A DNA stretch of 64,000 nt, taken from contig JAFZKU010000010.1 of the NCBI GenBank assembly GCA_017551785.1, positions 3,980 through 67,979 of the forward strand. The letters run 5' to 3'. The notes beneath the pieces are model-generated. The model did not search any database and had not been told where the DNA came from. It saw nothing but the letters and a program-made list of their open reading frames with translations. Shown in pieces: positions 13,752 to 32,612 of the stretch. A program made the position numbers and the translations under genes. The stretch is from Bacteroidales bacterium. GTDB taxonomy: Bacteria > Bacteroidota > Bacteroidia > Bacteroidales > UBA932. How positions within the stretch are numbered: the first letter of the stretch is position 1; each line of letters begins with the position of its first letter.

Positions 13752-13762
13752 ATTTGTGACCT

Positions 13763-13782
13763 GGAGCGGTATCACCCGCTCC
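13763..13782 (-). promoter_or_regulatory. Intercistronic stem-loop followed on the transcript by GGTCACAAA
   Basis: GGAGCGG (13763-13769) / CCGCTCC (13776-13782) is a perfect 7-bp stem with a 6-nt loop. The adjacent plus-strand TTTGTGACC is also found at two other intergenic sites of the operon. Confidence 0.4.
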
Positions 13783-13803
13783 AAGCCTATAAGGTTCTTC
13801 AAC

Positions 13804-14964
13804 TTACATGCCAAGTGAAATGTCGATGTTGGTTCCGTAAGTCTTTGCTTCCCAAGCGTCAACTGCAGGGTCGAAGGTGATCTGCTGACCGGCAGGGCCA
13901 AGGGTGATGTTGTAAGTGACGAACTGGTTCATCTGCCATGCGAATACAGAAGTGTTGGCGTCGCCGCTGTCGATAAGAAGGTCGGCTGAGAACACTTTGT
14001 CGCTCTGAGTCAGATAAGGATCAGAAGGATAATTCTCAGGATATACCCAATCATTGTTGGCATCCTGAGTTGCTGTCATACGATAAGCCTTGATAGTGAC
14101 TTTGAGGCTGATCTTCTGCTGGTCAGCAACAAGGGTCTGAGGAAGTGCATAGAACGGACCGATTACAGTCTGACCCTGGTTGGGAACGAGGTTGCGCAGC
14201 TGAACATCCTTATAAAGAGTATTATCTGTGTCGTTAGTGATGGTCTTATCAGCATTCCATACTTTGTATCCATCAGTGTCCTCAGGTTTAGTCCAGGGAA
14301 TGATGCCGTGATCAGTGCCTGAGAGGGTGAGTACGCAGCTACCTTTGGTGTAGAGACCTGAGAGAACTACCTGAGAAAGTGATACTTCCCATTTGGTCTT
14401 TGTGTGGCTGACGGCATCTTCTTTCTCATTTTCGCCGAGGATCACATTGATCTTAACCTGGGCACCGGCGTGACGGAAGAAAGTGGGAACACCACCGCGG
14501 GCGCTTACACCATCTTCAACCTGGTTGGCATTGTCAGTATAGCCGACAGCCTTGTCAGCATACATGAAATCGGTCTGGTTAGCAGTAAAGTCAATGTCGC
14601 TGTAAGTAATTTTGTTCTGCTGAACGGCAGGAACACCTGTATTGACAGGATAGTAGCAGAAGAAATCTACAGCCTGATTCTTAGGCCAGTAGTAAGGAGT
14701 AGTAGTGGTCCATACGTCATGGGTTTCGTTGTATGAAACCGTCTCGTTGTTGATGAAATAATCGCCTGAAGTACCTGCAGTCCATGCATAAGCACCGAAG
14801 ACTTCGGTTTTAGGGAATTCTGAACCGGTAACCTTTGTTCCATTAACATAGTTAGCGGCGAGGAATGAGATAGTGTTGTCATTTGCAACCGGCACCAGTT
14901 CACTCTTGGTGCAAGAGATTGCGAGAGTTGCAGCCATAGCTGCGAGAACGATGAAACGTTTCAT
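13804..14964 (-). CDS. Fimbrillin-family (type V pilus, Mfa/FimA-like) lipoprotein, paralog 7
   Basis: Signal MKRFIVLAAMAATLAISC. Motifs ISFLAANYVNGTKV, PTFFRHAGAQVKINV, and C-terminal ITFDPAVDAWE, shared with the neighbouring paralogs. Confidence 0.75.
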   Translation of the reverse strand: MKRFIVLAAMAATLAISCTKSELVPVANDNTISFLAANYVNGTKVTGSEFPKTEVFGAYAWTAGTSGDYFINNETVSYNETHDVWTTTTPYYWPKNQAVDFFCYYPVNTGVPAVQQNKITYSDIDFTANQTDFMYADKAVGYTDNANQVEDGVSARGGVPTFFRHAGAQVKINVILGENEKEDAVSHTKTKWEVSLSQVVLSGLYTKGSCVLTLSGTDHGIIPWTKPEDTDGYKVWNADKTITNDTDNTLYKDVQLRNLVPNQGQTVIGPFYALPQTLVADQQKISLKVTIKAYRMTATQDANNDWVYPENYPSDPYLTQSDKVFSADLLIDSGDANTSVFAWQMNQFVTYNITLGPAGQQITFDPAVDAWEAKTYGTNIDISLGM

Positions 14965-14999
14965 TAGTGTGTTGATTTTTAGGTTGTTATATTAATAAT

Positions 15000-16124
15000 T
15001 TATAGTTGTATACTAGTTGTTAATTCTATGCTTTCCCAATCGTCGACGGCAGGGTCGAAGTAAACTACTGTAGGCACCTGGTCTTCCAGTCCGTCACCGT
15101 CCAGGTCCTGTCCAGAGTTCTCTGCATGGCTCGGGGCAAGAACAAAGGTGTAAGTTATGTTCTGGTTGATGCCCCAGCCGGAGATTGCCGAAGTCTTGAG
15201 GTATGCTCCGACGTGGACATGGCTTTCTGTCAGGAAGAGATAGTAACCTTCGCCATTGTCTCTCCATGTACGGATAGTGACTTCCATATCTACCATCTGC
15301 GAAGTGCCGAAGGCTTGCGGCAGAACCATCTGAGGTGAGCCGACCACATGGAGTTCAGTATTCTCCAGCATCGGCAGCTGCGAGCAGTCCAGAGTGATGT
15401 CGGCCGGATCGCCGGATACAGTCCATGCATTGGTAGCAGGCTTATCCCACTCTTTGCCGTCCTCACCGAGATTAAGCGTCAGGCTGCCCTTGCTGTAGAT
15501 GTCTGTAAACTTGATGTTGTGGACAGTCACATCCCAGCGCGTCTTGTCATTGTCAGCGACCACAACTTCGTCATATGCCAGACGCAACTTCACTCCTACC
15601 CTCGCCAATGCGTGGTGGAAGAGGGTCGGCACTCCGTTGTAGTAGTATGTGGTCACAGGCGCAGTCATGCCAGGAGCTTTAGTAGCGTACATCAGGTCGA
15701 CGCCTTCGTTCTCTCCCATATCCCAGTCAGTCCAGCTGATGCTGCTTTCAGCAACCGTAGGACCGCTGTCGGCAGAGAACGGAGAGTAGCAGATGAAGTC
15801 CAGCGAACCGCCCTTCGGCCAGTAATAAGCAGCCCCGGCCGGCTTCCAGACATTGCCGTCGAATATTACTTTCTCATTTGTCATGAAGTCGGTATTGTCC
15901 GCATCTGTATCGCCCTTGTACCATGCATACGCGCCGAACGGAGTGTCGTCGTCATATTCGGACACTTTGACGTCTGCACGGGTCTTGACCACAGAATGTC
16001 TGGCCACCTGGAACGATATCAAGCGGGCCGGAGCATCCATTTCAGTCCGGGCGCAAGACACCATCCCCGCGGCTATGAACACCGCAGCCAGCACAATCCA
16101 TATGGCAGTCCTAAGCGACTTCAC
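15000..16124 (-). CDS. Fimbrillin-family lipoprotein, paralog 6
   Basis: Signal ...AAGMVSC. Motifs ISFQVARHSVVKTRA, PTLFHHALARVGVKL, VYFDPAVDDWE. Confidence 0.75.
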   Translation of the reverse strand: MKSLRTAIWIVLAAVFIAAGMVSCARTEMDAPARLISFQVARHSVVKTRADVKVSEYDDDTPFGAYAWYKGDTDADNTDFMTNEKVIFDGNVWKPAGAAYYWPKGGSLDFICYSPFSADSGPTVAESSISWTDWDMGENEGVDLMYATKAPGMTAPVTTYYYNGVPTLFHHALARVGVKLRLAYDEVVVADNDKTRWDVTVHNIKFTDIYSKGSLTLNLGEDGKEWDKPATNAWTVSGDPADITLDCSQLPMLENTELHVVGSPQMVLPQAFGTSQMVDMEVTIRTWRDNGEGYYLFLTESHVHVGAYLKTSAISGWGINQNITYTFVLAPSHAENSGQDLDGDGLEDQVPTVVYFDPAVDDWESIELTTSIQL

Positions 16125-16143
16125 GATTGGGGGTCAGAATTTA

Positions 16144-17385
16144 TTAGTCGTTTTCGTTAAGATTAACATCTGAAGAATAAACATCGGCCCATGCAACAAC
16201 TGCAGGGTCGAAGGTAACGGTCTGAGTTGCATACGGGTTGATGGAAATTCTATAGGTAATATTCTGGTTTTCCTTCCATTCAGTAATTGTTCCGTTGTTG
16301 AGACGAACGGTAGAAGTCACAGATTCAGTTGCCCAGTAGCCCTCATCGGTCTCAGTGATTGTTGAGGGAACGCTGGTGTAGTGAAGCTTGATGGTGTATG
16401 CAACTACGAGCACCTGATCGGTGGTAGTAGCGACATTCACCGGCTTATTGTTTGCATCGAGAGTTGTGAGGAGAGCCTGCGGAAGAAGGATACGGCTCTT
16501 GCCGAGGGCTGTATAATTGTCTGTAGCAAGAACATTGGCTTCAACAGTACCGTCAATCATTTCAAGAGAAAGGGTGCTGGAGGGAGCGAAGTCATAATCG
16601 GCAACGCTGGTGTGGTCTGAAGCCCAGCTGGGAGTGGCCGGAGTTGTGGTGGCCGGAGTCTGGGTGAATGAGCCTTTATTGTCGATATTCTTGATATCCA
16701 CATCGGTAACATCGATCACGATTCTGTCGACGTTGGGGTTCTTGCGGCCGATGGCGCGGAATGCGAAATTGATCTGGCAGAGGGCGTGGTTGAAGATGGT
16801 GGGAACGCCTTTATATCCATGGTCAGTAGTATTAGTTAACTGGTCATCAGTAACTAAAGTACCATCTGAATTATAATCCTTTGAGCAATTGGCGGCAAGA
16901 TTGGCATACATCAGGTCAACGTTGGTATTGTCGACAATAGTATAATTATTGAAAAGGAAACCTTTGTTAACATTATATTCTGGAACTCCAGAGAAACCAT
17001 CGGTAGCTGTGTTATCTCCAGTTGTATAAGGAGAATAAGAAGCAAAGGTAATCTTACCGGTTTTTGTCCAGTAATAAGTAGTGTTAGGGGCCCATTTTGC
17101 AACCTCAGTGTCAGTGGCGTTAGAGTGAATAATCTGCTCATTATTCATGAAGACATATGTCTGGTCAGCAGCTATACCAGTCCAATCACCGCTTGTCCAC
17201 CATGCGAAAGTTCCGAAAGGAACACCAACGGGATACTCAAGACCTGCTGTGGCCTTGGTCTGCTGAAGATGGTTGATGACACTGAAAGAGATGGGAGTTT
17301 CAACAGTGCTCTCCACTGTCTCGATCTTGGTGCAGGCTGCCAAGACTGTCAAGGCAGCAGCTGCGAGGATGAAATACTTTTTCAT
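16144..17385 (-). CDS. Fimbrillin-family lipoprotein, paralog 5
   Basis: Signal MKKYFILAAAALTVLAAC. Motifs ISFSVINHLQQTKA, PTIFNHALCQINFAF, VTFDPAVVAWAD. Confidence 0.75.
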   Translation of the reverse strand: MKKYFILAAAALTVLAACTKIETVESTVETPISFSVINHLQQTKATAGLEYPVGVPFGTFAWWTSGDWTGIAADQTYVFMNNEQIIHSNATDTEVAKWAPNTTYYWTKTGKITFASYSPYTTGDNTATDGFSGVPEYNVNKGFLFNNYTIVDNTNVDLMYANLAANCSKDYNSDGTLVTDDQLTNTTDHGYKGVPTIFNHALCQINFAFRAIGRKNPNVDRIVIDVTDVDIKNIDNKGSFTQTPATTTPATPSWASDHTSVADYDFAPSSTLSLEMIDGTVEANVLATDNYTALGKSRILLPQALLTTLDANNKPVNVATTTDQVLVVAYTIKLHYTSVPSTITETDEGYWATESVTSTVRLNNGTITEWKENQNITYRISINPYATQTVTFDPAVVAWADVYSSDVNLNEND

Positions 17386-17437
17386 TCTGTTTTGATTTTT
17401 TAGTTGTTATTGTTTGTTCATTTTACTTTCACTTTGT

Positions 17438-17467
17438 GACCGGAGGCAGGGTCAGCCGCCCCCGGCC
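17438..17467 (-). promoter_or_regulatory. Intercistronic stem-loop plus GGTCACAAA box
   Basis: CCGGAGGC (17440-17447) / GCCCCCGG (17458-17465) with one mismatch and a 10-nt loop, preceded on the plus strand by TTTGTGAC. Homologous to the element at 18666-18689. Confidence 0.4.
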
Positions 17468-17473
17468 TAAATA

Positions 17474-18607
17474 TTATTCTGATACAGGAACATTGATGTC
17501 TCTAGCAGTTTCGCTACTCCATGACTCAACTGCAGGATCGAAGCGTACTTTCTGTGTAACAGGATCGATAATCACGTTATAAGTAATTTTCGTATTCATG
17601 TTCCAGCTTGCAAGAGCTGTGCTGACAAGTTGATCCAATTTTTTAGTTACGGTAAGATTCTCTTCCATAAATGCGACATCCCCATGCTTGGCAGTCACCT
17701 TGTAATTGAGAGTGAAGTCAATCGCATTTGTAAGCTGGGGCATCATAGTACGTTCATCAAGGAGAGATACAGCAGTGGTTTCATGCGTATCAACATCCAT
17801 AGTCATTGTAGGAGTGAGGAAACTAACTGTCTCGGTAGTACTCTCACCGGTTGCTGCCACCCACCTGTAAGCAGTAGCATAAGCACTTTCGGCTTCCGGA
17901 GCATACTGGACTGTACCTTTTGAACCAGGATCTGCGGCTTTCATAACAAGAGTACCAGTCTTTTTTACGACTATGTTAGAGAGTTTCGTATCGGCATTAA
18001 GAATCTCAACAACCCATGTAGTATTTGCAGACTCATTAGCCGCAGCTGTAGCAAGTTTTACAGTGAAATTCACACGGCTCAGAAGGTGGCGGAACATGGT
18101 CGGAACTCCTTCTGTAATTCCATCCTTTCCATATGCATCGCCATTCGTACTACTGGTCACATTTGCAGTATAACGGTATGCTGCATCTGCGAGCAAGTAG
18201 TTATCAGCGCTTGTAATAGTTTTGTTAGAATAAGTAACTGTTGCTCCATTATCAGAGTATGTAGGAGTACCAGTACCTGCATATGAGAAGAAGTTAACAT
18301 AACCTGTCTTCGGCCAGAAATAATCGTCATCGGCACCCCAGAAGTCAGTTTTGTATTTTATGAGTTCATTGTTCATAAAAGTCTGAGCTGATCCCGATGA
18401 AGGGATATACCATGCATACGTGTTAAACTGATTGTAACCTTCTTTAAGGAGACCACCATCCTGATAATCAGCCTTGGTTTGTACACTGTAATTAGCAACC
18501 TCAAAAGAGATTTTCTTGAGAGTGTCAGGAGTGTTTGCAACTTCCATCTTGGTGCAGGCGGTGAGCGCTACCAGCGCGGCGGCTGCGAGTACGAAATACT
18601 TTTTCAT
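17474..18607 (-). CDS. Fimbrillin-family lipoprotein, paralog 4
   Basis: Signal MKKYFVLAAAALVALTAC. Motifs ISFEVANYSVQTKA, PTMFRHLLSRVNFTV, VRFDPAVESW. Confidence 0.75.
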   Translation of the reverse strand: MKKYFVLAAAALVALTACTKMEVANTPDTLKKISFEVANYSVQTKADYQDGGLLKEGYNQFNTYAWYIPSSGSAQTFMNNELIKYKTDFWGADDDYFWPKTGYVNFFSYAGTGTPTYSDNGATVTYSNKTITSADNYLLADAAYRYTANVTSSTNGDAYGKDGITEGVPTMFRHLLSRVNFTVKLATAAANESANTTWVVEILNADTKLSNIVVKKTGTLVMKAADPGSKGTVQYAPEAESAYATAYRWVAATGESTTETVSFLTPTMTMDVDTHETTAVSLLDERTMMPQLTNAIDFTLNYKVTAKHGDVAFMEENLTVTKKLDQLVSTALASWNMNTKITYNVIIDPVTQKVRFDPAVESWSSETARDINVPVSE

Positions 18608-18665
18608 AGTCTTTTGATTTTTTAGTTTGTTATTGTTTGTTACTTATTGATTTTCAATTTGTGAC

Positions 18666-18689
18666 CCGGGGCAGGATCAGCCGCCCCGG
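18666..18689 (-). promoter_or_regulatory. Intercistronic stem-loop plus GGTCACAAA box
   Basis: CCGGGGC (18666-18672) / GCCCCGG (18683-18689) is a perfect 7-bp stem with loop AGGATCAGCC, preceded on the plus strand by TTTGTGAC. Confidence 0.4.
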
Positions 18690-18700
18690 ACCTATGTTGC

Positions 18701-19960
18701 TTATTCTGCAGGTTTGGGAACCTCTACATCATAATTAGCTGTATCCCAGTCAACAACTGCAGGATCGAAGAGGATAGTATCAGTTGTAGGATCAATGATA
18801 ATGTTGTAAATAATCCTCTTGTTCATCTCCCAGTTAGCAGGAGCATTTGCGATCTTGTTCAGTTGCAGACCATTAGCAGTATATGCGTCATCTGCTGTAG
18901 TTGCGAAGTCCGTAACCGGGAAAACTTCAGTACCAAGGTTGGTGCAACCAGAATGTCCTTCAGCATTAAACTGAGTCTGAGTACCATACCATTTCGTAAT
19001 AGAGATGGTGAAAGTGAGTTTCATATCATTAGTAACAGCCTGAGGTCTAACAGCGATGAAGCCATCGGGCATGTAATTGGTAGCGTTGAGCGCTGAATAT
19101 GCAGCAGTGGTGAGGACCTCGCTTCCAGTTGCTGCTGCAGTAGTGAACCAATCATTTGGAGTATTGACAAGGGTAGCAGAAGTAGCATTTGCCCAAATTG
19201 CAGGACTTGGAACAGTCCATGCAGTAGTTGTTTTTGAACTCTCATATGTTTTAGTAAGGCTCAAAGTGCCATTCTTATGAACTTGGGGAAGTGTAAAGGC
19301 TGAAAGTTTCACCTCAAAGAATGTATAATAGCCACTATTCTTACTGTCTGCTTTTTTATCTTTTTCTTCTTTGATCTTCGCCTGGAATTTAACCTGAGCA
19401 AGGGCATGATGGAAGAGTGTAGGAACACCACTTGATACACCATCAATTTGGTTACGCTCTTGGTTAGCAGTCTGATGCCATGCAATGTCAGCGAAGAGAA
19501 TATCTGATTTGTAGTCAACAGTACGGTTTGTCCACACAAGTGTAGGTGCAGAGCTACCATTATAAGTGAGGGTCGGTGCTGCGGCAGTGCCGTCGAAATC
19601 ATACCATGAGAAGAAGTCGATGTTGCTGCTAGGTGATTTGGGCCAATAGTAATCTTTGCTAGGCTCCCACTCAGTGCTGGTGTCATTCCATGTGATAGTT
19701 TCAGGGTTAGGGTTGAAGAAATCTCCGAAGCTGCCACCATTCGGGTGGATGAATGCACTACTCTTGAAAGCTATTGTAGTTGCTTCCATGTTCGTAAGTT
19801 CGGTAAGGAAGCTTGAACCATCAGCTTTGGTCTGAGACATGTAGTTGGCTACCTCAAAGCCAATTTTAACATCGGGAGTTGCGGTTTCGTCGAGCTCCAT
19901 CTTGGTGCAGGCGGTGAGCGCTACGAGCGCGGCGGCTGCGAGAATGAAATACTTTTTCAT
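18701..19960 (-). CDS. Fimbrillin-family lipoprotein, paralog 3
   Basis: The ORF track extends to 20053, but the lipoprotein signal MKKYFILAAAALVALTAC starts at 19960. Motifs IGFEVANYMSQTKA, PTLFHHALAQVKFQA, ILFDPAVVDWD. Confidence 0.75.
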   Translation of the reverse strand: MKKYFILAAAALVALTACTKMELDETATPDVKIGFEVANYMSQTKADGSSFLTELTNMEATTIAFKSSAFIHPNGGSFGDFFNPNPETITWNDTSTEWEPSKDYYWPKSPSSNIDFFSWYDFDGTAAAPTLTYNGSSAPTLVWTNRTVDYKSDILFADIAWHQTANQERNQIDGVSSGVPTLFHHALAQVKFQAKIKEEKDKKADSKNSGYYTFFEVKLSAFTLPQVHKNGTLSLTKTYESSKTTTAWTVPSPAIWANATSATLVNTPNDWFTTAAATGSEVLTTAAYSALNATNYMPDGFIAVRPQAVTNDMKLTFTISITKWYGTQTQFNAEGHSGCTNLGTEVFPVTDFATTADDAYTANGLQLNKIANAPANWEMNKRIIYNIIIDPTTDTILFDPAVVDWDTANYDVEVPKPAE

Positions 19961-19994
19961 GATCTTTAGTTTTTTGATTGTTATATGATTATTA

Positions 19995-21191
19995 TTAATT
20001 TCCATTGTTCTGGTTAGGGTTCGGATACACAGCGCTGTCTGTAAGCCAGTCAACCATCGCAGGATCGATCTTGATTGTAGTGGTTTCGGGGTTGATTGTT
20101 ATCGTGTAAGTAATCTTCTTGTTCATATCCCAGTTGGCGATATGATCAGCTATAGTGCTCAGGTTGATATCAGCATGAATCTTTTCCTGGGCGTACTGCT
20201 CGTTATTGAACTTAGTCACGATTTTATAGTCAAATGAAAGAATCATGTCTGATGTAACCGCCTGGGGCATCACTGTCTGCATCTCAAGGACATCGACTGC
20301 GGTTGTTTGGAGTGGTGCATCTACATTCCCCATTGCAATAGAAGCAGCATTTCCTACAGGAGTCCATGAGCCGCTCCAAGCTTTAGTTGTAGCATCAGAT
20401 TGCGGCTCAGGATCATTGGCCGGGTCACCATTAGTAAGAGCAAGTGTTCCCTGGTTATACACACCCGCTAAAGAAATATTGCTCAGAGTAACTTCCCATT
20501 TAGTTTTTCCAAGACCTTCGCCTCCGGTAACATTGGCTTTAGTTGTATCAGCGACCGCTGCCTTGATGCAAAGTTTTGCAAGAGCATGGTGGAACATCAT
20601 AGGAACACCTTTGGTGACACCGCCATCTTTGTGATATTCTGCATTGGGGGTAGCCTTGAAATGCCAGGCTTCGTCCGCAAAAAGAAGATTGTCATCGGTG
20701 AGGACGGTATAGTTCTCCCACTTAAGAGACTCCTCTGTAGCTTCTGTGGGTGCAGTGCCTTTCTTGTCATACCAGCCGACAAAATTGATGTAGCTCCTGC
20801 TTCCCTTCGGCCAATAATAATCATGGCTCGGAGCCCAGTAAGCGACGAGAGCAGAATTAGTGGTTATACTGTTAGAGCCATCATATGCGGAAATGGTTTC
20901 ACCGTTTGCACCGAACATATCCTGAGTCGTGAAATACGAACCGACGCTGTCAGCATGCAGAAACGCCTTGCATTTGAAGCTTGCAAACTCTCTCATAATC
21001 GACCCAGCAGCAGGAACGGTATCATTGTCAGCCTTTGTCTGCGGCCTGTATGTAGCTGTCTCGAAAGTAATCTTTCTCGGAGGGGCAGTGTCTTCCAATT
21101 TCGTGCAAGCTGCCAGCGTCATCATCGCGATGACTGCGATGATGAAACACTTTTTCGTCGTTGAATTGTTCTTTGTCATTATCTTTTTCAT
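19995..21191 (-). CDS. Fimbrillin-family lipoprotein, paralog 2
   Basis: Signal ...CFIIAVIAMMTLAAC. Motifs ITFETATYRPQTKA, PMMFHHALAKLCIKA, IKIDPAMVDW. Confidence 0.75.
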   Translation of the reverse strand: MKKIMTKNNSTTKKCFIIAVIAMMTLAACTKLEDTAPPRKITFETATYRPQTKADNDTVPAAGSIMREFASFKCKAFLHADSVGSYFTTQDMFGANGETISAYDGSNSITTNSALVAYWAPSHDYYWPKGSRSYINFVGWYDKKGTAPTEATEESLKWENYTVLTDDNLLFADEAWHFKATPNAEYHKDGGVTKGVPMMFHHALAKLCIKAAVADTTKANVTGGEGLGKTKWEVTLSNISLAGVYNQGTLALTNGDPANDPEPQSDATTKAWSGSWTPVGNAASIAMGNVDAPLQTTAVDVLEMQTVMPQAVTSDMILSFDYKIVTKFNNEQYAQEKIHADINLSTIADHIANWDMNKKITYTITINPETTTIKIDPAMVDWLTDSAVYPNPNQNNGN

Positions 21192-21203
21192 TTTTCTATT
21201 TTT

Positions 21204-22304
21204 CTACTCAAGCGTTACGCCGCCTCCGCCGATGTTTGCATCCCAGTTCTGGAGGGTAGGCTGAATCTGTATCAGATCGGTTGAAAGATCGAATACAAGG
21301 GTATATATAATCCTGTGTCCCATCTCCCATGCAGGGATGACAGACACGAGTTCGTTAAGTTTCTCTGAAAGTGTTATGGTTTCTTCGCTGAACGCCGTCT
21401 CGCTGTTACCGTAGTAGGTGCTTATCTTGTAGGTGACGGTAAGTACCATGTCGTCAGTAACCGTCTGCGGCAATACTGTTCTAAGTGAAATCAGATCGGT
21501 TGATGACGTAGTAAGAGTGGTGGCACTTGACATTGCCATCGGGGCTGCAGTGCCGCTGGGAGTCCAAACATTATTTGTGGCAACCCAAGGCACGGTGGCT
21601 CTCGTAGTCGAGCCGGCGTTAGTCAGCGATACTGAACCGGTTGAATACACATTTGACAGTGAGAGGCTGTTGACAGTCACTGTCCTGGTCATGCCATTGC
21701 TGCTGGCATTGGTCTCATATGCCCTGAAAGCAACCTGAGCCAGGGCGTGGCGGAACAGCATCGGAACACCCGCAGCGACAGGGTCGCCGGTATACAGTGA
21801 ATTACTTGTATTCTCTTTATAATGCCAAGCCTCTTCAGCGACAAGCAGGTTGTCGGTACTCAGGACAGTGTAGTCGGTCCAAGAGAGGCTGGTCTCAGTG
21901 GCAGTGGCAGGTGTAGTGCCTTTGGCATCATACCAGGCGATGAAGTTCAAATAGCTGTCGCTGCCCTTCGGCCAGAAGAAGTCGTGCGAAGGAGCCCAGT
22001 AAGAAACGCTGGCCTCGGTGGTGGCTGCTGCGCCGGCGCTGGTGTAAGGAGTGATGAGCTGGCCGGCAGCGCCGAAGAAATCTTGAGTCTGATTTGCTGC
22101 TGTGTAACCCTCGGCATGCAGGAACGCTTTCGCGGTGAAAGAGGTGAATTCGCTCCAAATAGAAGAGTTGGCCTTTGTCTGCTGTGCATAGCTGGCAACC
22201 TGGAAGGTCACCTTGCGGTCCGGGTTGTACTCCTCCATATCCACCTTGGTGCAGGCGGTCAGAGCTACAAGAGCCGCAATTGCTATGTACAACAATTTCT
22301 TCAT
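21204..22304 (-). CDS. Fimbrillin-family lipoprotein, paralog 1
   Basis: Signal MKKLLYIAIAALVALTAC. Motifs VTFQVASYAQQTKA, PMLFRHALAQVAFRA, IQIQPTLQNWD. Confidence 0.75.
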   Translation of the reverse strand: MKKLLYIAIAALVALTACTKVDMEEYNPDRKVTFQVASYAQQTKANSSIWSEFTSFTAKAFLHAEGYTAANQTQDFFGAAGQLITPYTSAGAAATTEASVSYWAPSHDFFWPKGSDSYLNFIAWYDAKGTTPATATETSLSWTDYTVLSTDNLLVAEEAWHYKENTSNSLYTGDPVAAGVPMLFRHALAQVAFRAYETNASSNGMTRTVTVNSLSLSNVYSTGSVSLTNAGSTTRATVPWVATNNVWTPSGTAAPMAMSSATTLTTSSTDLISLRTVLPQTVTDDMVLTVTYKISTYYGNSETAFSEETITLSEKLNELVSVIPAWEMGHRIIYTLVFDLSTDLIQIQPTLQNWDANIGGGGVTLE

Positions 22305-22310
22305 CAGTTA

Positions 22311-23387
22311 CTAAATCGCTATCTCTCCATGTTCTTCCTCCCAATCATCCACGCTCGGCTGGAAACCGCCGTTGCTAGGATTCTCGTTGGGCAGAGGGTT
22401 CTCAATAACCCAGGTTTCATTTACAATCAGCCAGTGGCGCTCGATGGCATCTTCGGTGAGGAAGATCTGGTCGAGGCTGGTCTGGTATTGCTGGAGGTTG
22501 CCGGCCACGTCGATCACATTGAAGGTCACGATAAGCTCGGACTCAACCTCAGGTATCTTTCCAAATGTGTTGAACACAGCGCAGAGGACATCTTTGTTTT
22601 CTGTCTCCAGCCTCGGGTCCTGGCTCTTATTAAGGTCGAAGGCAACGGCGATCGAAGGATCTTCGGTGCGTTCGTCGAGACCGATGTGGTTAGACGGCGA
22701 CAGACCTGAGATGACTGCCATTGCAGAAGAAGCGTACTGCATTCCTTCTACATGGATTTGCAGGTAATATGAATCAACCACTGTGTGGGCCTCTGTGTGG
22801 ATCACAATTATAGAGTCGTGAGGAGACACCCTGAGGTTCTGCTCGCGGGCAACCAGCAGGTGGTCGGGCTCATAACGCATGTCGAGATTCATAAGGTCTT
22901 CGAAGCTGCTCCCCTCGTCGCCGGCCTTGGTGCGGCCTGAATAGCGTGCCTTCTGTGCTGCCGGAATCTCTTCGGTGTAGGCCAGGATCTCATTCTCGTC
23001 AGACTCGCCGGTAACCTTGGTCTCGGGAGTATCGAAGTTGTAGACGAGGATGTCGTAGTTACCGTAAGCAATGTTCAGGGAGCCTGTAAGGATCTGTGAA
23101 CCGTCTTCGGCGTATGACTTACCCTGGATGAAGCTCTGGGTCAACAGCTTCTTGGTCACAGGGTCATATACGAGTACGCGCATCACGTCGGTGTTGACGT
23201 CGGGAGTCGGTATATACTCGTTGTAGACGTCAACCTTGACGTTTGCTACTGCCTGGACGTTGACCTGAACTTTGATCTCTACGTACTCTGAAGGCTCCTC
23301 GAGGGGACGTCTCTCGCAGGCGACAAGAGTCATCAGCAGCGCGGTCACGCAGCAAATAAGCTTGAATATGTTTTTATTTCCTGTCAT
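22311..23387 (-). CDS. Pilus-operon lipoprotein, Mfa2/FimB-anchor-like or DUF5119-like
   Basis: Lipoprotein signal ...ALLMTLVAC. It is second in the operon, after the DUF3575 gene, as in other Bacteroidales fimbrial loci. It overlaps the upstream stop by 4 nt. The family assignment comes from context and a weak resemblance remembered from other loci. Confidence 0.5.
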   Translation of the reverse strand: MTGNKNIFKLICCVTALLMTLVACERRPLEEPSEYVEIKVQVNVQAVANVKVDVYNEYIPTPDVNTDVMRVLVYDPVTKKLLTQSFIQGKSYAEDGSQILTGSLNIAYGNYDILVYNFDTPETKVTGESDENEILAYTEEIPAAQKARYSGRTKAGDEGSSFEDLMNLDMRYEPDHLLVAREQNLRVSPHDSIIVIHTEAHTVVDSYYLQIHVEGMQYASSAMAVISGLSPSNHIGLDERTEDPSIAVAFDLNKSQDPRLETENKDVLCAVFNTFGKIPEVESELIVTFNVIDVAGNLQQYQTSLDQIFLTEDAIERHWLIVNETWVIENPLPNENPSNGGFQPSVDDWEEEHGEIAI

Positions 23388-25725: not shown

Positions 25726-26880
25726 ATGACTAAGAAGACACATTGGCCTCCCAGCAGGACTTCTATAGAGGCTCTTATTTTCATCATTCTGTTCCTGGTA
25801 TTTTTCATTCCGCTCGGAGCCAGGATGGGCGGCGAGAATCTCCTGAATACCATAATGCGGACTGCTCACGGGCTGCTGCTGAACACGGTGTTCTATCTGA
25901 TGAGCATCACGGTCCTCACGGGCGCGCTGTCGAAGCTCATGTCGGAGTTCGGTGTGGTTGCGCTGATCGGCCGGGTGCTGAAGCCGCTTATGAAGCCTCT
26001 CTTCAATCTTCCGGGCGTAGCCGCGCTGGGCGCCATAATGACCTTCCTGTCTGACAATCCGGCCATTATCTCGCTGGCCCAGGACAAGTCTTTCTCGTCT
26101 TATTTCAAGAAATACCAGTTGCTGTCGCTCACAAACTTCGGCACTGCCTTCGGCATGGGCTTCGTGGTGATTGTCACCATGATAAGCTTCGGCCAGCCCG
26201 GCGGTGCGCTGGTCGGCCTTTTCGGTGCGTTCTGCGGCTCTATCATATCTACCCGCATCATGCAGCGCAGCTGTCTGAAGTCTTTCCCGGAGCTCGACAC
26301 TCCAGCTGTCGATAAGGTTGTTGACGCAGAGATCACTGAAGGCCAGCAGGGCGACGGCAAAAAGCAGAGTATCTTCCTGCGCTGCCTCAATGCCATCCTG
26401 GACGGTGGCAAGAGCGGTGTGGAGCTCGGTCTGGCCATCATTCCGGGTGTGCTGGTCATCACTACTATGGTTATCCTCGTCACCTTCGGCGCAGGTCCTG
26501 AAGGTTACACCGGAGCTGCCAACCAGGGCGTCCCTATCCTACCCTGGCTTGCTCAGAAGATTCACTGGGTGTTCGAATGGCTCTTCGGCTTCGGCGACAT
26601 GCGTCTCATCGCCTTCCCGATGACTACTCTCGGCTCGGTCGGGGCCGCGCTTGGTTTGCTGCCCACCTTCAATGCTGAAGGTCTGCTTGACGGCAATGCA
26701 ATTGCAGTCTTCACCGCCATCGGAATGTGCTGGAGCGGCTTCCTGTCAACCCACACCGCCATGCTCGACGCCCTCGGCTTCCGCAAGGCCATCTCCAAAG
26801 CCCTCGGCGCCCACACCATCGCAGGCCTCGCCGCCGGCATCATCGCCCACTTCCTCTACCTGCTGATCTCGCTGATCTAG
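25726..26880 (+). CDS. Polytopic membrane protein, nucleoside-recognition (Gate) domain / YjiH-like
   Basis: 384 aa with about 10 hydrophobic segments. The motif region LIGRVLKPLMKPLFNLPGVAALGAIMTFLSDNPAII resembles Gate-domain proteins. It starts 5 nt after the AraC gene stop. Confidence 0.5.
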   Translation: MTKKTHWPPSRTSIEALIFIILFLVFFIPLGARMGGENLLNTIMRTAHGLLLNTVFYLMSITVLTGALSKLMSEFGVVALIGRVLKPLMKPLFNLPGVAALGAIMTFLSDNPAIISLAQDKSFSSYFKKYQLLSLTNFGTAFGMGFVVIVTMISFGQPGGALVGLFGAFCGSIISTRIMQRSCLKSFPELDTPAVDKVVDAEITEGQQGDGKKQSIFLRCLNAILDGGKSGVELGLAIIPGVLVITTMVILVTFGAGPEGYTGAANQGVPILPWLAQKIHWVFEWLFGFGDMRLIAFPMTTLGSVGAALGLLPTFNAEGLLDGNAIAVFTAIGMCWSGFLSTHTAMLDALGFRKAISKALGAHTIAGLAAGIIAHFLYLLISLI

Positions 26881-26914
26881 CCCGCCTCCCGCACTCCCGG
26901 GCCGCCTCGAATCC

Positions 26915-27206
26915 GTCTGGCCCGTGAAAAGCCGGTTTGCGGGGCCAGATGACTGCTCGGAGCCCGTCTGGCACGTGAAAGCCCGGTTTGCGGGGCCAGA
27001 TGCTCGCTTGGGACCAGTCTGGCCCGTGAAAAGCCGGTTTGCGGGGCCGGATGCTCTTCCGGAGCCTGTCTGGCCCGTGAAAGGCTGGTTTGCGGGGCCG
27101 GATGATTGCTCAGAGCCCGTCTGGCCCGGGAAATGGCGGTTTGCGGGGCCGGATGATTGCTCAGAGCCCGTCTGGCCCGTGAAATGACGGTTTGCGGGGC
27201 CGGATG
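26915..27206 (+). repeat. REP-like array A: 6 tandem units, exact 51-bp period (37-nt imperfect palindromic core plus 14-nt linker)
   Basis: Cores GTCTGGCCCGTGAAAAGCCGGTTTGCGGGGCC(A/G)GATG start at 26915, 26966, 27017, 27068, 27119 and 27170. Confidence 0.9.
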
Positions 27207-27294
27207 CCAGTGCTGAGGGTCCGGGAGGCCGACCGAAGGCCGCAGCAGGACAGAGCAAATGCGGCCGGCGATGCGATAAGTCGAAAAGAATGAG

Positions 27295-27302
27295 TATCTT
27301 TG
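27295..27302 (+). promoter_or_regulatory. -7 promoter box TATCTTTG upstream of obg
   Basis: TAnnTTTG match, 9 nt before the ATG at 27311. Confidence 0.45.
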
Positions 27303-27310
27303 CCAGCGAT

Positions 27311-28303
27311 ATGGCAGACAGCAACTTCATAGACTATGTCAAGCTCTACTGCAGGGCCGGGAACGGCGGTGCGGGTTCGGTGCATCTGCGCCGCGAGAAA
27401 TACATTCCCAAGGGCGGTCCTGACGGCGGCAACGGCGGGCGCGGCGGCAACATTATCCTGCGCGGCAACGCCCAGATGTGGACGCTGATCCACCTCAAAT
27501 ACCAGAAGCACGTTATCGCCGAGAACGGCGAGGGCGGCAGCGGCGGCCTGAAAGACGGCAAGGACGGCAAGGACATCATCCTCGAAGTGCCGCTGGGCAC
27601 AGTAGCGAAGGATGCAGAGACCGGCGAAGTGCTGCTGGAGATCCTCGACGACGGTCAGAAGGCTATCCTGGCCAAGGGAGGCCGCGGCGGCCTGGGCAAC
27701 AACAACTTCAAGAGCCCCACCAACCGCACGCCGAGGTACGCCCAGCCGGGCGAGGAAGGCGTCGAAGGATGGTTCATCCTGGAGCTGAAGATAATGGCCG
27801 ACGTGGGTCTGGTGGGCTTCCCCAATGCCGGTAAATCCACTCTCGTTTCGACCCTTTCTGCAGCCAAGCCGAAGATTGCAGATTATGCCTTCACCACTCT
27901 GGAGCCCAGCCTCGGCATCGTCAGATACCGTGACGAGCGCTCTTTCGTGATAGCCGACATCCCCGGCATCATCGAAGGCGCCCACGAAGGCAAGGGCCTC
28001 GGGCTCCGCTTCCTGCGCCATATCGAGCGCAATTCGATGCTGCTGTTCATGGTTCCCGCCGACAGCGACGATATCGCCCGCGACTACAAGATCCTGCTCA
28101 ACGAGCTCAAGCTCTACAACCCCGAGCTGCTCGACAAGGACCGCATCCTGGCCATCTCCAAGAGCGATATGCTCGACGAGGAGCTGCGCCGCGAGATCAG
28201 CAAGCATCTGCCCCGCAAGGTGCCTCACATTTTCATCAGCAGCGTCACCGGATATAACATAACGGAGCTCAAGGATATGCTCTGGAATACCCTGAACAGC
28301 TGA
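27311..28303 (+). CDS. obg: GTPase Obg/CgtA
   Basis: [52 protein letters not shown] is the Obg fold. G motifs GFPNAGKST and DIPGIIEGA. The ORF-track start at 27290 overlaps the promoter box. Confidence 0.9.
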
Positions 28304-30788: not shown

Positions 30789-30810
30789 TCTCTGATTTCA
30801 ATATAAAAAA

Positions 30811-30842
30811 GGGTGACCGCAATCGGCCACCCTTATTTTTTG
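30811..30842 (+). terminator. Rho-independent terminator of rpsU
   Basis: GGGTGACCG-CAAT-CGGCCACCC stem (one mismatch), preceded by an A-run and followed by TTATTTTTTG. Confidence 0.7.
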
Positions 30843-30877
30843 TCATCCGAGCCCCTCGTACCTTGGCCATCGACCGT

Positions 30878-31016
30878 CATCCGGCCCCGCAAACCGGCTT
30901 TCCACGGGCCAGACAGGCTCCGGAAGAGCATCCGGCCCCGCAAATCGGCTTTTCACGGGCCAGGCGGAACCCAAGCGAGCATCTGGCCCCGCAAACCGGG
31001 CTTTCACGGGCCAGAT
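30878..31016 (-). repeat. REP-like array B: 3 units, 51-bp period, reverse orientation relative to array A
   Basis: Cores CATC(C/T)GGCCCCGCAAA(C/T)CGG...CACGGGCCAG start at 30878, 30929 and 30980. The last core ends 1 nt before the stop codon (31018-31020) of the RAYT-like gene. Confidence 0.9.
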
Positions 31017-31017
31017 G

Positions 31018-31995
31018 TTACTTCCTGAACGGGAATTGCTCGTCGACAATATTCTTTTCCAACTTGAGTAGCCTGGCAATCTTTTCGTTGTCGGCGTTGT
31101 AGTCGAAGTGGAGGGTGCGCGCGAGATCTTGTTTCGCCTTTGTGGGAAGCAGGGCTGGTTTATTACCGTTGTATTCTTGATTACAAATACGGTAGACTAC
31201 GGCAATGAGTTCATCGTCAGTATAATAGATGGAATCTCCGAGCTGGGCGGCTATTTCTTTGTAAGATTCGATGTCACGTGATATCTTGTGGAAATAATGG
31301 CGTGCGTCGCGGAACAATCCCTCGCCGATGTCGAGTCTGACATAGTTGACAGGTGAGATATACCCGTCATACAGAATCCACGCTTCAGGATAATCTATTT
31401 CTTTGGAACGGACAAGTTTGCGGCGATCATGAATAAACAGTTCTCCGAAAGTTCCGTTGGAATACCGTTTGGCAGCTGGAGAAAAGTAAAAGCTGTTGGC
31501 ACCGAAAGGGTAAGAGAAAGGGGTCTGATTGGGGTCTACCACATAGTTGTTCCGATTGACATAAACAATTTGATTGCGAACGGATTCAAGCGATTCAACC
31601 GGAATCAGCTTAGCATTCTCAAAGTGTCTGAGGCTGACCGTATTGCCTTCCTTCTTTAAATTGAATCTCAGCTTTTTATAAAGCATGTCGAAGAAGTCCA
31701 TGACATTTTCTTTGCGGCCGCAAACGAGCATGTGTAGATGGTTGCTCATTATCTCAAAGGTGAGTATCTGGATGTCTGGACAATCATGAGAACATATCGC
31801 GATGAGATTCATCATGGAAACATAGGCTTCCTTGTCGTGGAAGATTACGGGCTGTCCGACACCCGGGGTACAGAGGTGCCAGATGCCCCCGAAATTGGCG
31901 AGAACCCATCGAAACATGAGATTGCATTTGTTTTCTTTTGCACTGAAAGATGCGTAATCGGACGCATGCTCAGAATTATTGATGATTGTTGCCAT
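31018..31995 (-). CDS. IS200/IS605 Y1 (HUH) superfamily protein, REP-associated tyrosine transposase (RAYT)-like, with an extra ~120-aa C-terminal domain
   Basis: 325 aa. IWHLCTPGVGQPVIFHDKEAYVSMMNLI, then HUH motif FEIMSNHLHMLV, then a Tyr motif region RNQIVYVNRNNYVVDPNQTPFSYPFGANSFYF (compare Y-I-x-x-N-P ... YPWSS of RAYTs). REP-like arrays sit on both flanks. Confidence 0.7.
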   Translation of the reverse strand: MATIINNSEHASDYASFSAKENKCNLMFRWVLANFGGIWHLCTPGVGQPVIFHDKEAYVSMMNLIAICSHDCPDIQILTFEIMSNHLHMLVCGRKENVMDFFDMLYKKLRFNLKKEGNTVSLRHFENAKLIPVESLESVRNQIVYVNRNNYVVDPNQTPFSYPFGANSFYFSPAAKRYSNGTFGELFIHDRRKLVRSKEIDYPEAWILYDGYISPVNYVRLDIGEGLFRDARHYFHKISRDIESYKEIAAQLGDSIYYTDDELIAVVYRICNQEYNGNKPALLPTKAKQDLARTLHFDYNADNEKIARLLKLEKNIVDEQFPFRK

Positions 31996-32019
31996 ATTCG
32001 ACCTCTACTTGTTTTCAAG

Positions 32020-32027
32020 CAAAGCTA
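32020..32027 (-). promoter_or_regulatory. -7 promoter box (TAGCTTTG on the minus strand) for the RAYT-like gene
   Basis: Plus-strand CAAAGCTA is TAnnTTTG on the minus strand, 24 nt upstream of the ATG at 31995. Confidence 0.45.
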
Positions 32028-32330
32028 TGATACTGGGGGCATAATAGGCGTTTTTAAACGTTTAGATACGTTTTATTTGTTTAACAGGAATACAATTATA
32101 CACTGGACTGGAGTCTGCTGCAGAGGTGGAGTCGGCGGAAACAAAAAGTTTTCTCCCGTCGGCTCTGCGGGGGCTCAGGAAAAGCCCTCCTCGCATAGCT
32201 AAGGAAAACTTTTGTATGGAAGCTCATCCAGCCGCGGTGAAAACGGAGAAGGAGGTTTTCTCCAGCCAGCAAAGCGAGCTCTTTGGGTGGCTCGCTTTGT
32301 CCGGCTAGGAAAACCTCGGCGCTACACTGG

Positions 32331-32520
32331 CACTTGGCCCCGCAAACCGCCCTTTCGCGGGCCAGACAGGCTCCGGACTAGCATCCGGCCCCGCAAACCG
32401 CCATTTCCCGGGCCAGACAGGCTCTGAGCAATCATCAGGCCCCGCAAACCGGGCTTTCACGGGCAAGACAGGCTCCGGAAGAGCATCCGGCCCCGCAAAC
32501 CGGACTTTCGCGGGCCAGAC
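32331..32520 (-). repeat. REP-like array C: 4 units, 51-bp period, same orientation as array B
   Basis: Cores start at 32331, 32382, 32433 and 32484 (for example CATCCGGCCCCGCAAACCGCCATTTCCCGGGCCAGAC). Confidence 0.9.
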
Positions 32521-32560
32521 GGGCTCCAGGCGGGGTGCGACGGGCGCTGACCCGGGCGCG

Positions 32561-32593
32561 AAAAAAGGGCGACCACAACGCGCGGCCGCCCTC
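32561..32593 (-). terminator. Rho-independent terminator downstream of mutB
   Basis: On the minus strand, AGGGCGGCCGCGCGTTGTGGTCGCCCT is followed by TTTTTT. It begins 20 nt after the stop at 32613. Confidence 0.7.
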
Positions 32594-32612
32594 TTCGCTG
32601 AGCTTGCTCCCC

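Follow-up and report, generated by a model that had tools for sequence, protein, structure and literature searches.

The 64,000-nt window analysed here is part of a rumen Bacteroidales chromosome (contig JAFZKU010000010.1 of assembly GCA_017551785.1), and it carries a gene for a divergent Y1 HUH (histidine-hydrophobe-histidine) transposase-like protein flanked on both sides by arrays of a hairpin that recurs every 51 nt. The locus is probably REPtron-like (REP, repetitive extragenic palindrome), in the sense that a resident Y1 HUH enzyme under purifying selection lies amid its own cognate hairpins and mobilises them as direct doublets and arrays. This reading is carried by the fold and catalytic motifs of the protein, the pairing of gene and hairpin throughout the family, the 51-nt spacing, the dispersal of sharp-ended doublets, and the vertical retention of the gene. 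That a Y1 enzyme is accompanied by its own hairpins is established logic; the surprise lies in the constant 51-nt spacing and in the direct doublets, both of which are experimentally tractable. To our knowledge, REP systems and their transposases have been worked out almost entirely in Proteobacteria, and the mechanism of their spread is still unproven.

The gene and the three arrays of the window are positioned as follows.

31018 to 31995, minus strand: gene for a 325-aa divergent Y1 HUH protein (TnpA_Y1 / RAYT-like; RAYT, REP-associated tyrosine transposase), from the open reading frame (ORF) list, Foldseek, homologues and the ratio of nonsynonymous to synonymous substitution rates (dN/dS)

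30878 to 31017, plus strand: array B, downstream of the gene, three 51-nt units, from Tandem Repeats Finder (TRF), the core-pattern scan and sequence reading

32331 to 32527, plus strand: array C, upstream of the gene, four 51-nt units oriented as in B, from TRF and the core-pattern scan

26913 to 27207, minus strand: array A, six 51-nt units of the same repeat family, inverted relative to B and C, from TRF and the core-pattern scan

An earlier note on this DNA had described the 325-aa ORF and, on either side of it, arrays of one imperfect palindrome in the same orientation, with three units ending 1 nt from the stop codon and four lying about 335 nt upstream of the start; all of this agrees with the coordinates obtained here. 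TRF reported a 51-nt period at 30878-31015 (2.7 copies) and at 32336-32527 (3.8 copies). A degenerate 27-nt core, GGCCCCGCAAAYCGNNNTTYNNCGGGC, gave 13 matches in the window at no more than 3 mismatches, compared with 0.00 expected in shuffled sequence; three of these matches are at 30883-31011 and four at 32336-32515, all on the plus strand, and adjacent matches within arrays are always 51 nt apart. Each unit consists of an imperfect palindrome of about 38 nt (CATCYGGCCCCGCAAA...TTTCRCGGGCCAGAYG) and a spacer of about 13 nt. The final hairpin of array B (CATCTGGCCC...GGGCCAGATG) has its last base at 31017, immediately next to the stop codon (31018-31020), a decayed unit of the same array is found at about 30842-30877, and array C begins 335 nt from the ATG of the gene (31995). 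Array A, which the earlier note overlooked, does not adjoin the transposase-like gene: it is flanked by obgE and a gene for a Gate-domain transporter, and over 208 nt its arms show 88% complementarity to array C.

The protein belongs to a large family of about 2,100 clusters, the named members of which come from rumen and other Bacteroidales. In a non-redundant collection 237 homologues were found at E <= 1e-3; the best 120 of these are mostly 315-345 aa in length, and those among the 120 that bear NCBI names are from Bacteroidales metagenome-assembled genomes (MAGs). An exhaustive profile search gave 2125 representatives (clusters at 50% identity) at E <= 1e-3 and 265 at E <= 1e-30, and the best 150 of the 2125 are mostly 300-330 aa long and match nearly the full profile. 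Members are annotated by NCBI as 'transposase' or, mostly, as 'hypothetical protein', with no Pfam or NCBIfam model, and a few homologues are annotated 'REP element-mobilizing transposase RayT' by the Joint Genome Institute (JGI). A scan of metagenome contigs, mainly from rumen and gut samples, provided 80 loci with homologues 37-72% identical to the window protein. Homologue clusters occupy 1-14 contigs, and repeated contigs have identical flanks.

Lineage-specific hairpins bracket the gene in most of the 80 related loci, as a rule with one direct pair per side, so that the claim of a gene flanked by its own repeats holds for the family and not only for the window. Arrays with a period of 50-52 or 102 adjoin the gene in 22 of the 80 loci according to TRF, and direct inspection of loci lacking a TRF array revealed a hairpin pair on each side. 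The palindromes differ between lineages (CTGTCCA/TGGACAG, CCGGCCACG/CGTGGCCGG, CCATCCTCA/TGAGGATGG, GTGCTC/GAGCAC, GGGGCG/CGCCCC and GGGAGC/GCTCCC), and hairpin type tracks protein clade, mean protein identity being 68% within a type and 50% between types. Where the window has the stem CTGGCCC/GGGCCAG, locus L009 has CTGTCCA/TGGACAG at the orthologous mutB-gene-rpsU site, a compensatory change on both arms. The spacers of most hairpin families contain a run of purines or of A (GAAAAAC-like), and the strand of this run relative to the gene varies by clade. In many loci the last upstream hairpin stands at a near-constant distance from the ATG (about -158).

The spacing is the same across these different hairpins. 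When 46 lags were tested, the best self-similarity lag was 51 in 69 and 52 in 10 of 128 non-redundant flanks, compared with a best lag of 51 in 21 of 257 control sequences more than 2.5 kb away. Measured from centre to centre, neighbouring perfect hairpins of the same type (n=90) were 51 nt apart in 42 cases, 102 in 14, 153 in 6 and 52 in 6; spacings of 51, 102 or 153 nt thus account for 62 of the 90, with stems of 8-13 bp and loops of 5-19 nt. Since the spacing remains constant while stems, loops and spacers vary, the invariant is the spacing and not the parts of the unit. The repeats upstream and downstream of the gene have the same orientation in 29 loci and are inverted in 2, a count that leaves out three apparent scores which are artefacts of truncated flanks. 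The earlier suggestion that direct, strictly periodic arrays depart from classical RAYT loci is correct, and the lag, orientation and spacing counts make it general across the family.

Two further arrangements were observed among the related loci. Loci L068-L070 have very long flanking arrays, with up to about 11 copies of a 102-nt period in which two subtypes of the GTGCTC-family hairpin alternate, identity being 84-86% at lag 102 and 63-67% at lag 51. On contig Ga0256405_10000445 two paralogs 36 kb apart (L016 and L078) have different hairpin types, CGGCCATAAA and GGGAGCAA, and resemble in this the known genomes in which every one of several RAYTs has a REP of its own.

The motifs SNHLHML and QIVYVNRNNYV, on which the earlier assignment to an IS200/Y1 layout was based, are found in the protein, and their catalytic codons are located as follows.

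31732 to 31740, minus strand: HUH motif codons (His86-Leu87-His88 in SNHLHML), invariant in the alignment and aligning with MPDHVHLLL of ISDra2 TnpA

31546 to 31563, minus strand: tyrosine motif codons (Tyr145-Val-Asn-Arg-Asn149-Asn150), from the alignment, the predicted helix and the distant homologue P0262

In an alignment of 29 diverse homologues His86 and His88 are invariant, within T-F-E-x-M-S-N-H-[VL]-H, as are Tyr145, Asn147, Arg148 and Asn149, within R-N-Q-I-x-Y-x-N-R-N-N. A profile of this alignment matches ISDra2 TnpA from the PDB at the HUH motif (ITFELMSNHVHL versus ITMEVMPDHVHL, E 0.07). An AlphaFold (AF2) model built on the alignment had a predicted local distance difference test score (pLDDT) of 84 and a predicted template modelling score (pTM) of 0.77, and gave the order strand 38-42, helix 55-71, strand 76-82, strand 87-92, helix 95-115, strand 129-132, helix 136-147. 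This predicted order is the Y1 transposase topology, in which the HUH motif starts the third strand and the tyrosine is on the following helix: His86-His88 are at the start of predicted strand 87-92, and Tyr145 is in predicted helix 136-147, after strand 129-132. When the model was compared with the PDB using Foldseek, the credible matches were solely Y1 transposases, namely those of Sulfolobus tokodaii (2ec2), IS608 (2vic/2vhg/2a6o), ISDra2 (2xm3) and IS200 (2f4f) and the Escherichia coli RAYT (4er8), with probabilities of 0.96-1.0, target-normalised template modelling (TM) scores of 0.45-0.60, root-mean-square deviations of 3.2-5 A and E-values of 0.02-0.2. These matches cover about 105-135 alignment columns, which is about the length of the Y1 core domain.

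Direct sequence searches count against the assignment. The window protein scores below threshold with Pfam Y1_Tnp (PF01797; 13 bits versus a cut-off of 23, E 0.11), as do 22 of the 29 homologues with sub-threshold matches; the NCBIfam search of the same protein gave no match, and phmmer against the PDB returned nothing relevant. P0262, a distant family member (profile E 1.5e-51), passes Y1_Tnp with 26.2 bits over profile positions 35-119, and its motif YIHRNP aligns with YVNRNN of the window protein. The profile check proposed earlier has therefore failed for the window protein itself and succeeded for a distant member, and both catalytic positions can be aligned, the HUH motif with ISDra2 TnpA and the tyrosine motif with P0262. 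Since the direct searches are non-significant, the Y1 assignment rests on fold, motifs and this bridging homologue. In the published classification of TnpA_Y1 proteins, NH[LIV]H and Y-I-x-x-N-P are the signatures of class 2 (TnpA_REP), and the counterpart of the Asn at Tyr+4 in IS200/IS605 enzymes is a Gln, Y-x-x-x-Q/N being present in known classes (PMC6006769). The window family retains NH[VL]H, the Tyr and the Asn at Tyr+4; also against the assignment, the conserved W motif and the Pro of class-2 YIxxNP are absent from the family (PMC6006769). From its predicted fold and its motifs, we place the protein, at the level of class rather than of published subclass, as a divergent, class-2-like branch of the Y1 HUH superfamily.

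Beyond the catalytic domain lies a region that classical Y1 transposases do not have.

31021 to 31530, minus strand: conserved C-terminal region, residues ~156-325, absent from classical Y1 transposases, from conserved blocks and the model

The C-terminal extension pointed out in the earlier note is present and conserved, with a length of about 170 aa rather than the 120 aa or so given there. Its conserved blocks among the 29 homologues are FRDARHYF, YYTDDEL and LHFDYNADN. In the full-length model the region has a pLDDT of 80-95, with helices in its last ~60 aa; a model of the region by itself was weaker, with a pLDDT of 73. Foldseek with the isolated region found nothing significant (best E 0.4), and the non-significant top matches were mostly helix-turn-helix proteins (sigma region 4, DeoR, TetR and ParB). 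The last ~60 aa may possibly form a helix-turn-helix, although the earlier suggestion to this effect is not established at such E-values.

The repeats also occur apart from the gene, in the genome of MAG RGIG8143 and in many of the related loci. In a scan of one genome per species (185,579 species) the core pattern was found, besides one stray match, only in RGIG8143, a Bacteroidales bacterium MAG from water-buffalo rumen. There it occurs in 7 stretches on 5 contigs, about 30 units in all (at most 4 mismatches), in arrays of 2-6 units that are nearly all spaced at 51 nt. Since RGIG8143 also carries an ortholog, identical to the window protein at 308 of 325 residues, the repeat is dispersed in a gene-bearing genome. 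The earlier expectation that core and gene occur together agrees with RGIG8143. Among the related loci, 13 of the 32 with enough distant sequence have cognate hairpins at distances above 1.5 kb from the gene, in most cases forming a 51-nt doublet; these 14 distant sites in 207 kb amount to about 1 per 15 kb. Array A in the window is 3.8 kb from the gene. Distant and gene-flanking doublets share sharp ends, and in the CCGGGCAC and CCGGGAGC lineages the doublets also share a terminal inverted extension of about 10 nt, GAAGCGGyTG...CAACCGCTTC.

The gene itself appears to have stayed in place. The order mutB-array-gene-array-rpsU-xerC is kept in the window, in L090-L092 (identical protein), in L077 (72% identity) and in L009 (66%), so that the orthologous position is retained from 100% to 66% protein identity while dS saturates. 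Compared with the RGIG8143 ortholog, dN/dS is 0.022/0.247 = 0.09, and compared with a 98%-identical strain it is 0.14. There was one gene copy in the 64 kb and no identical multi-copy cassettes were seen; the family had no match on plasmids or phages, and no matches to PHROG or PADLOC models were found, by which a defence-system, phage or plasmid origin was rejected. The conserved synteny, the low dN/dS, the lack of plasmid and phage matches and the repeats apart from the gene all bear out the earlier view of a domesticated gene rather than a conventional insertion sequence (IS). The gene has 45% GC compared with about 57% in nearby flanks, and in 45 of 48 loci it is lower in GC than its surroundings. 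Recent horizontal transfer was considered as an explanation and ruled out, since third-position GC is not low and the offset recurs in those 45 loci; the low GC therefore reflects amino-acid composition.

The surroundings of the arrays include two terminator-like hairpins.

30809 to 30834, no strand assigned: bidirectional terminator hairpin common to rpsU (plus strand) and the transposase-like gene (minus strand), with a T-run on both strands

32561 to 32597, minus strand: mutB terminator-like hairpin with a T-run, immediately before array C, read from the sequence

Array B lies between the stop codon and the bidirectional terminator and is therefore within the 3' untranslated region (UTR) of the gene, and array C sits between the mutB terminator and the upstream region of the gene. 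The mutB terminator-like hairpin also precedes the array in L005 and L009. Pfam labels agree with the housekeeping neighbourhood described earlier: rpsU, a XerC-like integrase gene, hpf, lplA and obgE lie to one side of the locus, the other side being occupied by two methylmalonyl-CoA mutase genes.

A Y1 transposase is a dimer and has two sites for hairpins, as established for IS608, and by analogy the fixed 51-nt spacing and the dispersed doublets are compatible with a dimer that would hold two neighbouring hairpins. In the mechanism we propose, an enzyme dimer would bind hairpins on transiently single-stranded DNA, one hairpin per subunit, and would cut at fixed positions relative to them by means of an HUH-bound metal and Tyr145, forming a 5'-phosphotyrosine link before rejoining the cut ends. 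The binding and cleavage of single-stranded DNA are presumed here from the known enzymes. The natural substrate would be two neighbouring hairpins, and the mobilised unit a direct doublet or any whole number of units, so that units would be gained, lost and inserted only in 51-nt steps. Exchange between equivalent cut sites would cause arrays to change by whole units and doublets to be released or inserted, and the outcome would be arrays of head-to-tail units, strains that differ in copy number, and cognate doublets in distant intergenic regions. The dimer may thus act as a ruler that causes the 51-nt spacing, and we infer that movement of the units is due to the enzyme and not to replication slippage or homologous recombination. 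The exact 51-nt centres and the sharp-ended direct doublets provide a clean quantitative signature, which makes the idea that a dimer binds two hairpins testable. This mechanism is modelled on IS608 and ISDra2 TnpA and on E. coli TnpA_REP (PMC6006769, PMC8266576). A more far-reaching form of the proposal, in which the family would be a separate Bacteroidales-wide class with a mobile direct doublet, a 51-nt ruler set by the enzyme (dimer plus C-terminal region), self-targeted array growth, and inverted arrays that serve as frequent inversion switches (for example of the 5.4-kb obgE-rpsU-transposase segment), is put forward only tentatively, and we doubt it more than we believe it.

Several points weigh against the REPtron-like reading, in addition to the negative sequence searches and missing motifs given above. 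We know of no member of this family for which biochemical activity has been reported. Slippage or unequal recombination alone could produce the changes in array length. No empty/filled site pair was found, as the window has no region orthologous to the other RGIG8143 array loci, and the copy numbers per genome come from fragmented MAGs. No GTAG or CGTC tag was found at a fixed position or at the hairpin foot in the units. The mismatches in the window hairpins are G.T on the gene-sense strand, from which a preference for an active strand was considered; family-wide counts of 220 G.T and 252 A.C show no bias, and this was rejected. Lastly, homologues below about 60% identity are in unrelated genomic contexts, which, with the two paralogs on one contig (L016 and L078), implies that the cassette has moved or been duplicated on long time scales. 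That last point would also be expected if the cassette of hairpins, promoter, gene and hairpins were an autonomous IS200/IS605-like IS, with hairpins as left and right ends and distant doublets as solo ends or deletion derivatives. Identical hairpins in the same orientation on both flanks do resemble IS200/IS605 ends, and the near-constant position of the last upstream hairpin implies that the promoter travels with the gene. We nevertheless consider an IS unlikely: identical multi-copy cassettes were not seen, clusters are on few contigs, repeated contigs have the same flanks, and the orthologous position outlasts the saturation of dS. Moreover, the repeats upstream and downstream are one unit and not a left end and a different right end, doublets and arrays of 3-6 units are found far from any gene copy, and the family is absent from plasmids and phages.

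It is also conceivable that the arrays serve mainly as duplex binding sites for the C-terminal region (cooperatively, in autoregulation, nucleoid structuring or inversion), or as 3'-UTR stem-loops that stabilise or terminate transcripts, the HUH core having a minor role or none in spreading. Some of the data agree with this, in that 51 bp would be near five turns of B-DNA, centre-to-centre spacing is independent of stem and loop length, each window array is at the 3' end of a gene beside a terminator (array B being in the gene's own 3' UTR), the C-terminus has weak helix-turn-helix-like matches, and both orientations occur for the segment between arrays A and C. Invariance of the HUH, Tyr and Asn residues, however, argues for retained catalysis, distant doublets with identical ends need a copying or mobilising process, and hairpins that change between lineages with compensatory stems fit recognition of a hairpin rather than a duplex. 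The helix-turn-helix assignment is itself non-significant, and we regard this alternative as decidedly unlikely, somewhat more so than an IS. Far less probable than either is that the repeats are incidental to the gene, whether as a CRISPR-like (clustered regularly interspaced short palindromic repeat) array, a coding repeat of 17 residues or an assembly artefact. The 51-nt period is a multiple of three, long ORFs cross the arrays (for example 26746-27330 on the minus strand), and contigs often end in arrays. The CRISPR reading was rejected, since the 'spacers' are conserved and not unique and there are no cas genes, and the coding-repeat reading was rejected, since several frames are open across the arrays on both strands. 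The arrays are moreover located between terminators and genes, and the pairing of gene and hairpin recurs in dozens of independent assemblies with different hairpin sequences.

The REPtron-like locus of the window can be compared with several known systems. With the REPtrons (E. coli YafM/RayT, 4er8; class 2, PMC6006769) it shares the Y1 HUH fold, NH[VL]H, the Asn at Tyr+4, a single chromosomal gene per hairpin type flanked by its own hairpins, an apparent intergenic dispersal of cognate hairpins, covariation of hairpin type with protein, vertical retention and purifying selection. The family differs in that its protein is about twice as long, with the conserved C-terminal region of ~170 aa, lacks the W motif, has the Tyr motif Y[TVI]NRNN[FY] instead of YIxxNP and is sub-threshold in Pfam, and in that its hairpins have no GTAG/CGTC tag and are arranged head-to-tail at an invariant 51-nt spacing, not as inverted pairs (REPINs or bacterial interspersed mosaic elements, BIMEs). 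In classical RAYT families inverted pairs are the rule and head-to-tail dimers are absent or rare (PMC3733652, PMC8266576), and BIME arrays repeat an inverted pair (PMC8266576). TnpA_Y1 subclasses with large C-terminal domains have been reported as not REP-associated (PMC6006769), and the present family is an exception to this published rule.

The closest listed group, compared by description only, is TnpA_Y1 subclass 2.6 (Bertels group 5; PMC6006769), which is mostly from Bacteroidetes and has 'atypical secondary structures'. Alike are the Bacteroidetes hosts, NH[LIV]H, hairpins that flank the gene, lack GT[AG]G and are found at other places in the genome too, and the YIHRNP motif of P0262, which is close to YIH[QN]NP; unlike are the median length of 179 aa compared with 300-330 aa here, the WQ motif, which is absent here, and the periodic head-to-tail arrangement or fixed spacing, which is not described for that subclass. 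With IS200/IS605 elements (IS608, ISDra2 and IS200) the family has in common the catalytic fold and same-orientation hairpins on either side of the gene, and in many family members the 5' leader between promoter and start recalls the IS200 leader hairpin, by analogy only. The family differs from these elements in not being multi-copy, in having neither distinct left and right ends nor tnpB, in its conserved chromosomal position, and in repeats that spread without the gene. REPINs (PMC3116915) resemble the present repeats as dispersed doublets of two hairpins with a fixed spacer and sharp ends, some lineages here having the terminal inverted extensions of ~10 nt; here, however, both hairpins are direct repeats including their loops, the doublet does not fold into one long hairpin, and window-lineage doublets have grown into arrays of 3-6 units. 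In the papers searched no description of a 51-nt periodic arrangement was found, which is no proof that one does not exist, and a search for tandem REPs of rumen bacteria or Prevotella found nothing relevant.

The 5.4-kb segment between the inverted arrays A and C contains obgE, lplA, hpf, xerC, rpsU and the transposase-like gene and was found in both orientations among near-identical strains. The window orientation is also present in L090, L096 and L009, and the segment is inverted in L089 (a 98%-identical strain) and in RGIG8143 (L005), with breakpoints inside the arrays; these are short-read assemblies, in which a chimeric join is possible. The arrays appear to mediate inversion of a group of housekeeping genes. 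Strains can differ in unit number even when 99-100% identical elsewhere, as L091 and the window do, and many contigs (L090-L095, L005 and L006) end within 51-nt arrays, from which it follows that the repeats systematically break short-read assemblies of these genomes. The assembly breaks, the variation in unit number and the apparent inversion bear on MAG quality and on strain comparison.

Three features lie between array C and the start codon of the gene; the Bacteroidetes -7 promoter consensus was used for the first.

32020 to 32027, minus strand: Bacteroidetes-type -7 promoter box TAGCTTTG, 32 nt upstream of the ATG, read from the sequence

32055 to 32064, no strand assigned: palindrome TAAACGTTTA upstream of the -7 box, a candidate operator, from its recurrence in relatives

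32135 to 32330, minus strand: second, unrelated repeat between array C and the promoter region, from its recurrence in RGIG8143

TAnnTTTG is found at the equivalent place upstream of the gene in most homologous loci. Two non-coding motifs are conserved in the upstream regions of the family (for example in L013, L016, L024-L044 and L078), and both may be regulatory. One is a leader, CCAnAGCCAYGGTGGCGTTGG, which about half of the loci have between the -7 box and the ATG. The window and L058-L079 have instead, further upstream than the -7 box, AAACGTTT or AAACGATT and then AAACGG; this combination of TAAACGTTTA (or TAAACGATTA) with AAACGG is carried by the window clade and those loci. The second repeat holds a long hairpin of about 65 nt at 32253-32317 (fold z-score -4.3) and recurs beside 51-nt arrays in RGIG8143 with compensatory stem changes (L003 5860-6140, L006 290-495 and L005 5880-5959). 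Rfam gave no match for the arrays or for the second repeat.

Two regions of the window away from the locus are also repetitive. At 13700-22400 there are at least 5 paralogous genes on the minus strand, about 1.15-1.35 kb apart, with common 5' ends (signal-peptide-like) and common internal blocks; the matching region of L089 contains genes with Pfam DUF5119 and DUF3575 matches. At 59585-59940 an 18-nt (6-codon) tandem repeat is present in at least 14 copies, apparently inside a coding region.

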